Source: a virus (Duplodnaviria; Heunggongvirae; Uroviricota; Caudoviricetes). Taken from it: a DNA stretch of 18,705 bases. The notes under the pieces are model-generated. The model saw only the letters and a list, made by a program, of their open reading frames with translations. It did not search any database and was not told where the DNA came from. This document shows positions 1,637 to 2,066 of this stretch, piece by piece; within the stretch, counting starts at the first letter, position 1, and each line of letters opens with the position of its first letter. The position numbers and the translations under genes were made by a program. The stretch lies in the IMG/VR virus record IMGVR_UViG_2778261458_000001, positions 1 to 18,705 of that record. One strand, written 5' to 3'.

Positions 1637-1819
1637 TCAGTTCTGCAGACACTGCCGAACACCGTCGACAATTTCACAGACCTGAGACGCGGTATCGAAA
1701 AGCTGGCGCGCCTTATCCAGGCTGACGCACCCCACCAATAAAAAAGGCACCAGTATCGCTACCAGTGCCCGTTTCACCGCCGTTCGCGGCATTCTGTGTG
1801 TCCAGTGTTTTCGCGCCAT
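1637..1819 (-). CDS. Small lipoprotein (signal peptide with LVGC lipobox)
   Basis: 60-aa ORF MARKHWTHRMPRTAVKRALVAILVPFLLVGC..., hydrophobic h-region followed by L-V-G-C lipobox; mature part about 30 aa with three Cys. GGTGG-like SD just upstream of ATG 1819. Confidence 0.55.
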   Translation of the reverse strand: MARKHWTHRMPRTAVKRALVAILVPFLLVGCVSLDKARQLFDTASQVCEIVDGVRQCLQN

Positions 1820-2025
1820 ATCACCACCAACGCACAGCCCAAATCAGAACAGCGACCGCCACAAGGCGAATTGCAAAGGCCGCAGCCCTTGTCAAATCAA
1901 GGCTCGCGGGAGTTTCCATTTCAATACCTTTCATAATGGACAACCTCAAAAAGAATCTTTTATACTTTCCCACGAGGATTTTCTCCGTACTCACTAATCA
2001 CAATTTCCCCTTTGACGTGAAAACT

Positions 2026-2064
2026 AAAAACCCCGGACTGTTCCCCCAGCCGGGGTTTTGTTTT
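2026..2064 (-). terminator. Rho-independent (bidirectional) terminator immediately after the endolysin stop
   Basis: CCCCGG(A)CTG / CAGCCGGGG stem (2031-2055), 6-nt loop, flanked by A5 (2026-2030) and TTTTGTTTT (2056-2064), so it forms a hairpin plus U-run on either strand. Confidence 0.6.
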
Positions 2065-2066
2065 AC

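Follow-up and report, generated by a model that had tools for sequence, protein, structure and literature searches.

How does a lambdoid phage that carries no Rz/Rz1 pair behind its endolysin gene complete the lysis of a Gram-negative host? The question is raised by an 18,705-nucleotide (nt) stretch of viral DNA, IMG/VR record IMGVR_UViG_2778261458_000001, positions 1 to 18,705 (hereafter the window), which is a lambdoid prophage with all its late genes on the minus strand. The part of it tested here is 100% identical to a prophage in enterotoxigenic Escherichia coli (ETEC) H10407 and in many other ETEC genomes, and its lysis cassette ends with a gene for a 60-amino-acid (aa) prolipoprotein. 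In the accepted view, phages of Gram-negative hosts finish lysis by means of a spanin, two-component or unimolecular, that links the inner and outer membranes; to our knowledge, one exception to this requirement has been described, a cationic peptide. We find that the lipoprotein gene is under selection, runs in the late direction, closes the lysis cassette and alternates with Rz/Rz1. As to its function, we give an even chance to the reading that the protein is a stand-alone spanin substitute, the last protein of the cassette, which would carry out the outer-membrane step of lysis.

The predicted protein begins with a signal peptide, MARKHWTHRMPRTAVKRALVAILVPFLLVG (residues 1-30, 1819-1730), in which a long basic n-region is followed by a hydrophobic core, and continues with a mature part of 30 aa, CVSLDKARQLFDTASQVCEIVDGVRQCLQN. 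The lipobox reads LVGC and places the lipid-modified cysteine at Cys31 (codon 1729-1727), with Val rather than Asp at position +2. The mature part contains three cysteines (Cys31 and the conserved Cys48 and Cys57) and no proline. A preliminary description of the locus had these traits right, namely a 60-aa LVGC lipoprotein with three cysteines that is not proline-rich, and it also had the spacing right, as the ATG lies 248 nt past the endolysin stop codon. It erred in calling this the next gene after the endolysin, having overlooked an intervening 37-aa open reading frame (ORF) for a small membrane protein (smTM). Met1 of the lipoprotein is invariant among homologues, and in three different upstream contexts a Shine-Dalgarno sequence stands before it. 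Homologues have T, I, V, Q or P in place of Met10, from which both RefSeq and a published spanin census start the protein (51 aa). Judged by this conservation and by the Shine-Dalgarno sequences, the 60-aa Met1 start is correct and the 51-aa RefSeq model is too short.

Related loci were gathered through the lipoprotein, through the holin, through the small membrane protein, and from phage records. Across approximately 170 loci, the intact lipoprotein gene lies 3' of an endolysin gene in every case, and a holin gene lies 5' of the endolysin wherever the contig extends far enough. The endolysins are of the M15, GH108 or CHAP/NlpC-like classes, and the holins are either a holin_8 and holin_3_7 pair or a lambda-S-type holin. 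In 65 locus instances, behind M15, GH108 and CHAP-like enzymes, the lipoprotein starts -1 to 18 nt from the end of the endolysin, with no room for any ORF between the two genes; often the distance from the stop codon is 9-18 nt, or the genes overlap. At one locus (L183) the stop codon of the endolysin and the Shine-Dalgarno sequence of the lipoprotein, GAGGTGG, overlap. In many relatives translation of the lipoprotein is coupled to that of the endolysin. At other loci inserts part the two genes: most often a 250-nt module of terminator and smTM (71 instances). In phiP27 the insert is an antisense 90-aa ORF, Salmonella and pPE4 have a KilA-N gene there, and further inserts reach 1070 nt. Downstream of the lipoprotein, the genes differ from locus to locus. 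Given that holins, endolysin classes, inserts and downstream genes all vary, the endolysin is the only constant neighbour, and the position of the lipoprotein is the one normally held by spanin genes.

The window carries an insert of the 250-nt kind. The terminator directly after the endolysin, reported in the preliminary description, is borne out by a G+C-rich hairpin with a T-run (Table 1); it forms the 5' end of the insert, which also holds the 37-aa ORF, and is not present in relatives whose lipoprotein abuts the endolysin. Terminator and smTM together make up a mobile module between the endolysin and the spanin slot. A longer smTM variant and a second small membrane ORF are found at another locus (L064).

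That the slot is shared with spanin genes is seen directly in a set of sister cassettes (L177-L181). These consist of holin_8, holin_3_7, a GH108 endolysin and smTM, followed after the same TGGTGGTGAtATG junction by a canonical lambda-type Rz of 149 aa (PF03245, E 4e-38) with an embedded proline-rich Rz1 (PF06085, E 6e-13), the Rz1 of L177 serving as a positive control for the Rz1 profile. Since the pair follows the same junction, the lipoprotein and Rz/Rz1 are alternative occupants of one slot. The Shiga toxin (Stx) phage GER2 has S, R, smTM and Rz/Rz1, and approximately 750 nt further on a broken lipoprotein copy. This unannotated pseudogene (L182 3489-3680; MG710528.1 ~46796-46987) carries a 1-nt insertion that shifts the frame and three stop codons. 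Overall, 161 loci combine an intact lipoprotein with the absence of a lambda-type Rz, five have Rz and no lipoprotein, and one has Rz and a broken lipoprotein. Close relatedness inflates these counts; the exclusivity is nevertheless consistent, pointing in the same direction over some 8-10 distinct architectures.

The two occupants appear to be unrelated. The mature lipoprotein shows no significant similarity to the Rz/Rz1 of the sister cassettes (shuffle tests against Rz1, p 0.84-0.94), and the lipoprotein has no match to the Rz1 profile PF06085 at E <= 1. This lack of detectable similarity indicates a non-homologous replacement rather than a degraded spanin. Derivation from Rz or Rz1 by deletion or fusion was also considered and rejected, the mature part being dissimilar and the only shared DNA being the 3' end of smTM. 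The suggestion, made in the preliminary description, of a divergent outer-membrane spanin is therefore half right. It describes the slot, as seen in the location at the cassette end, the exchange with Rz/Rz1 and the decay in GER2; as a statement of family membership it is wrong, because the partner that defines such spanins is missing.

The partner was sought in all six frames. In the 18.7-kb window no ORF near the cassette combines an N-terminal transmembrane domain (TMD) with a periplasmic domain of at least 45 aa, and the 60-aa ORF is the only credible lipobox ORF on the late strand. The same scan of the complete phiP27 genome and of the whole H10407 prophage gave no inner-membrane spanin (i-spanin), with false positives only (StxB, Lom and a tail protein), and the annotations of both list no Rz. 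The preliminary description had found no Rz/Rz1-type pair after the endolysin and no i-spanin-type ORF between the endolysin and cos, and the scans agree on both points; an overlapping pair of i-spanin and outer-membrane spanin (o-spanin), looked for in all frames of the window, was likewise not found. More broadly, the window, phiP27, the H10407 prophage and the relatives yielded no cognate i-spanin, whether embedded, overlapping or adjacent. A survey of Stx phages detected the Rz family in 277 of 279, the only two without it being Stx2e (P27-like) phages with a metallopeptidase endolysin (PMC8136144).

Set against these negatives is a published partner. Kongari et al. (2018) listed phiP27 as having a 'separated' two-component spanin, with an i-spanin at 20348-20542 (64 aa) and an o-spanin at 20706-20861 (51 aa), whose combined periplasmic length of 62 residues is the shortest in the census set (PMC6139136). 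The census o-spanin, a singleton family there, is a homologue of the window lipoprotein, so that the latter could be the o-spanin of a minimal two-component spanin, its partner being the phiP27 64-aa ORF or, in the window, smTM, whose stop codon lies 1 nt from the lipoprotein ATG. The 64-aa ORF has a TTG start, occurs only in phiP27 and near-identical contigs, and has no PHROG match. It lies wholly antisense (L001 3780-3974) to the 90-aa ORF, which matches phrog_36812 (E 5e-20) and is kept in three further loci that do not preserve the 64-aa frame; the whole insert is absent from the window. The i-spanin call of the census is probably an artefact.

We also rejected smTM as a substitute i-spanin. 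About half of the lipoprotein loci do without this optional module, which also lies 5' of complete canonical Rz/Rz1 genes in L177-L181 and in GER2. Its hydrophobic segment is C-terminal, so in an N-in orientation it would have no periplasmic domain and does not resemble an i-spanin. The downstream ORF at 1462-1070 (phrog_1935) was discarded as a conserved partner as well, given that downstream genes vary by locus. Together with the 65 locus instances in which no intervening ORF could fit, these context data largely refute a two-component arrangement, which we regard as very improbable.

Conservation across the family indicates which parts of the lipoprotein matter. The family is a very small one: a word-indexed search of 5.8 billion proteins returned 136 clusters, and a full profile search of 1.8 billion representatives returned 21. 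The named hosts in the 136-cluster set are Escherichia, Salmonella, Citrobacter and Cronobacter, to which contig scans add Lelliottia; the family is confined to Enterobacteriaceae and includes Stx2e and Stx2k phages and ETEC prophages. Among sequenced phages, the gene occurs only in phiP27, phiSTEC1575-Stx2k, vB_Apl-pPE4 and, as the pseudogene, GER2. Two main types can be distinguished, type A with a mature part ending in QLFDTASQVCEIVDGVRQCLQN and a net charge of -1, and type B with one ending in NWFGVAADVCDTVKKIKDRCNDRK. The long basic n-region, L-[VA]-G-C and both mature cysteines are found in every intact member, and lipobox, Cys48 and Cys57 vary little or not at all across the 136 clusters and the 21 distant representatives. 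The +2 residue is V, A, T, S or G, and the Lol-avoidance Asp occurs in none. The window protein has no hydrophobic segment after Cys31 and ends at residue 60; where homologues are extended at the C-terminus, the extensions are short and polar. Between types A and B, 14-15 of the 22-24 same-residue codons outside the hairpin described below differ synonymously, which indicates that selection acts on the protein.

Database searches placed this protein in no functionally described family. The lipoprotein has no match in Pfam (E <= 1), NCBIfam, PADLOC or PDB sequence searches, so that none of these searches ties it to a known non-lysis family; at E <= 1, neither lipoprotein type matches a PADLOC model, nor do smTM and the downstream ORF. 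A twin-arginine (Tat) signal was rejected, the RR motif being present in type B and absent from type A. Mimicry of Braun's lipoprotein (Lpp) was rejected too, with similarity p values of 0.5-0.8 and Lpp absent from the matches of the PDB profile search.

A second conserved element lies within the gene itself. Codons 17-28, in the signal-peptide region, encode an RNA hairpin (Table 1) with a 10-11 bp stem, a GNRA loop (GCGA) and a fold of -26 kcal/mol (z -7.3). Two of the stem pairs are G.U, which makes the hairpin specific to the sense transcript. Its core is identical at the nucleotide level in all relatives, including type B, with variant loops GCAA and ACAA, and in phiSTEC1575-Stx2k a Leu-to-Pro change in the signal peptide turns a G.U pair into G-C. 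Compared with three type B genes, the hairpin shows synonymous differences at 0-1 of 9-10 codons and the rest of the gene at 14-15 of 22-24 (Fisher p 0.001-0.02); two closer relatives of type A give no significant contrast (p 0.12, 0.44). Because of the hairpin, the signal-peptide core, usually the most variable part of lipoproteins, is here the most conserved. Rfam has no family for the hairpin. The element looks like an intrinsic terminator within an ORF, and it may gate expression to transcripts antiterminated by Q.

The hairpin and its U-run are nucleotide-invariant and form the most conserved stretch of the locus, which could mean that the RNA is the selected element and the surrounding ORF incidental. 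We find this barely credible. The frame, Met1, the lipobox and both mature cysteines are kept across approximately 40% amino-acid divergence and many synonymous changes outside the hairpin. In GER2, moreover, the frame has collapsed while the hairpin largely persists, so that ORF and hairpin are separable features.

The hairpin also bears on whether the gene belongs to lysis at all. Morons are known to accumulate in the interval that parts the lysis genes from cos, and small outer-membrane lipoproteins of lambdoid phages are often morons. The lipoprotein could accordingly be a lysogenic-conversion or exclusion factor like Bor, Cor or Llp, with no role in lysis; the terminator that parts it from the endolysin in the window would suit this explanation, as would the many different inserts that the interval takes and the related cassettes that do without the lipoprotein. 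Several observations point the other way. Behind three classes of endolysin the gene abuts or overlaps the endolysin, sharing its Shine-Dalgarno sequence with the stop-codon region; no promoter-like site precedes it on its own strand; Rz/Rz1 takes its place at an identical junction in sister cassettes, and in a phage that has Rz/Rz1 the lipoprotein gene has decayed. The strong terminator-like hairpin within the gene would block transcripts that are not antiterminated, which fits a late lysis gene and speaks against a moron expressed in the lysogen. We therefore hold a moron, which the preliminary description had listed among its options, to be unlikely.

Its more specific option of a Bor-like factor fared no better. 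The lipoprotein resembles lambda Bor/Iss in being a small lipoprotein of a lambdoid phage encoded beside the lysis genes. It shows no similarity to them, with no Pfam, NCBIfam or PHROG match to Bor and no PADLOC match, and its gene lies on the late strand. Bor is encoded on the opposite strand and has its own promoter; at one locus (L071) a true Bor has a gene of its own immediately 3' of the lipoprotein, on the other strand.

If the lipoprotein acts as a spanin substitute, its path could be as follows. The gene would be cotranscribed with the holin and endolysin genes from the Q-antiterminated late operon, and the hairpin in the signal codons would limit synthesis to antiterminated late transcripts. 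As in general lipoprotein biogenesis, the product would be exported by Sec, and Lgt, LspA and Lnt would lipidate it and cleave it at Cys31. Because the +2 residue is Val and not Asp, Lol would then deliver it to the inner leaflet of the outer membrane. Hydrophobic residues at mature positions 4, 7, 10/11, 14, 17/18, 21, 24 and 27/28 give a heptad-like amphipathic pattern, whose register from the lipid-modified cysteine is the same as in Braun's lipoprotein. The hydrophobic moment of the mature part is 0.34-0.36, a value reached by 6-8% of shuffles, and the AlphaFold monomer is one long helix (pLDDT 66). Together with the cysteine pair, the heptad pattern suggests that the 30-residue helix may pair or oligomerise through Cys48 and Cys57. 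After degradation of the murein by the endolysin, the lipoprotein would destabilise the outer membrane without a phage-encoded inner-membrane partner. The candidate final steps are oligomerisation with insertion in the inner leaflet, and activation of a host factor, in the way that the phospholipase OmpLA is activated by colicin lysis lipoproteins.

Comparison with known systems sharpens this proposal. Like lambda Rz1 and other o-spanins, the window protein is a small lipoprotein (a 60-aa precursor, as Rz1) encoded last in the cassette and bearing conserved periplasmic cysteines; unlike Rz1, to which it has no similarity, it is not proline-rich and is predicted to be helical. By sequence, then, it has the lipobox and the cassette position of an o-spanin. 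Unlike two-component o-spanins, it has no i-spanin gene, and its 30 mature residues cannot bridge the periplasm. A periplasmic cysteine is a near-universal trait of two-component spanins, found in approximately 96% (PMC6139136), and Cys48 and Cys57 provide it in all intact members, with a predicted disulfide. The o-spanin PseT.2 of T4 likewise has no proline-rich region, is partly helical and has two conserved C-terminal cysteines that are both needed (PMC6139136), features that the window protein parallels in its lack of proline richness, its predicted helix and its two conserved mature cysteines. PseT.2 differs in its length of 83 aa and in working with the i-spanin PseT.3; neither homology to it nor a partner gene was detected here. 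The unimolecular spanin gp11 of T1 offers another parallel, one gene with an N-terminal lipoprotein signal serving the outer-membrane step, but gp11 spans the periplasm with a C-terminal TMD in the inner membrane, whereas the window protein ends 29 residues past Cys31.

Two further comparisons concern proteins that act singly. Colicin lysis lipoproteins (Lysis_col) have a mature part of approximately 28-33 residues and an L-x-G-C lipobox, and break down the envelope on their own via host OmpLA; expression of their genes is attenuated by a terminator close to the gene. The window protein resembles them in mature length, lipobox and nearby terminator, which we take as a functional analogy only: there is no Pfam match (E <= 1), the sequences are unrelated, the gene sits in a phage cassette and not in a colicin operon, and the cysteine pair and heptad helix are features of the present protein. 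The disruptin, phiKT gp28, is a single small cationic protein, similar to antimicrobial peptides, that replaces the spanin in a spanin-less phage (bioRxiv 10.1101/515445). Both are single small proteins in place of a spanin; gp28 is cationic and has no lipoprotein signal, whereas the window protein is predicted to be lipid-anchored and, in type A, has a negative net charge. A lone, 30-residue, disulfide-bearing lipoprotein could constitute a third class beside spanins and the disruptin, swappable one-for-one with Rz/Rz1 in lambdoid cassettes and dependent on Q through an intragenic terminator; we advance this wider claim tentatively, as somewhat short of an even bet.

A membership in the lysis cassette is also compatible with a lesser role, that of an accessory lysis regulator acting on timing, endolysin activity or envelope stability, with the outer membrane failing by another route. 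Approximately 15% of phages are reported to have no spanins and to use other means (bioRxiv 10.1101/515445), and the mature part of the lipoprotein is too short for a spanning complex. A regulator working through specific protein-protein contacts is hard to reconcile with the three unrelated endolysin classes and the several types of holin that the lipoprotein accompanies, and the one-for-one replacement of Rz/Rz1 points to the spanin step itself. We judge a purely regulatory role distinctly unlikely.

Several points weigh against the lipoprotein as a spanin substitute. The periplasm is roughly 20 nm or more wide, and a mature helix of 30 residues (approximately 4.5 nm) falls below that width; being too short to reach the inner membrane, the protein could not use the established fusion mechanism of spanins as described. 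The AlphaFold model is of low confidence at the pLDDT given above. The sole named match of the lipoprotein, to phrog_1275 ('Rz-like spanin'; E 0.048 and 0.0076), is a weak hint of spanin homology and may reflect signal-peptide similarity alone. The family is known from its genes alone. The loci are close relatives within Enterobacteriaceae and heavily redundant, so that the counts overstate independent support; the independent contexts number perhaps 8-10 cassette architectures. Some cassettes, moreover, lack the lipoprotein (L148, with a moron instead, and SerU-LTIIb, with toxin genes), which means that phages or prophages can exist without the gene. In L148 the post-endolysin interval holds an opposite-strand, histidine-phosphatase-like moron (4728-5321), and in SerU-LTIIb (L089) it holds LT-IIb enterotoxin genes (3759-4908).

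The family had previously been known only as a line in the spanin census, with a partner that is probably an artefact. It is a good candidate for a partner-less outer-membrane lysis lipoprotein and may represent an undescribed way to break the outer membrane. If so, outer-membrane rupture would not need membrane fusion, the phiP27 entry in the census would need correcting, Stx2e and related prophages would need the lipoprotein to release their toxin, and a very small, genetically tractable outer-membrane disruptor would be at hand. If not, these phages would be useful examples of truly spanin-less lambdoid phages.

Table 1. Features of the lysis region and its surroundings in the window.
Feature	Position	Strand	Basis and remarks
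DNA methylase	4936-3887	minus	
Three tRNA genes	3837-3588	minus	Arg-tct, Arg-tcg and CAT-anticodon tRNA; upstream of lysis cassette
TerB-like C-terminal fragment and DUF3927 / TciB-like 50-aa membrane protein	3192-3565	minus	Fragment is a RefSeq pseudogene; directly 5' of holins
First holin-family gene, 130 aa, Phage_holin_8	2712..3104	minus	PF16931 E 3e-23; phrog_198 holin
Second holin-family gene, 91 aa, Phage_holin_3_7	2447..2722	minus	PF05449 E 2e-21; phrog_217 holin; RefSeq model 276 nt
Endolysin, M15 family metallopeptidase, 125 aa	2067..2444	minus	Peptidase_M15_4 PF13539 E 8e-13; phrog_465 endolysin E 1e-75; RefSeq
Intrinsic-terminator-like G+C-rich hairpin and T-run	~2026..2059	minus	Terminator scan; fold -24.1 kcal/mol, z -4.3; directly 3' of endolysin
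37-aa small membrane protein (smTM), MKGIEMETPASLDLTRAAAFAIRLVAVAVLIWAVRWW	1821..1934	minus	RefSeq WP_001297666.1; phrog_4493 E 9e-24; phrog_1115
60-aa prolipoprotein, last lysis-cassette gene	1637..1819	minus	phrog_7528 E 1.5e-35 (function unknown)
RNA hairpin GGGCACUGGUA-GCGA-UACUGGUGCC, then UUUUUUAUU	1736..1770	minus	Terminator scan; codons 17-28 of lipoprotein gene
130-aa ORF between lipoprotein and cos	1070..1462	minus	phrog_1935 (function unknown); no TMD
cos region, then Nu1	Nu1 from 485 to window edge	minus	

Beyond the cassette, a few smaller observations were made. The CAT-anticodon tRNA is assigned to Met by ARAGORN and to Ile by RefSeq, which annotates two of the three tRNAs; the middle one falls under the Rfam threshold (26.4 vs 29 bits). 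The phrog_1935 ORF occurs in many, not all, related loci, is truncated to 115 aa in phiP27, and is replaced by unrelated genes in type B loci. The presumed cos region, just 5' of the Nu1 start, contains two inverted repeats, one of 25 nt (84% complementary, 5-nt spacer) and one of 14 nt, at 510-564 and 553-622.

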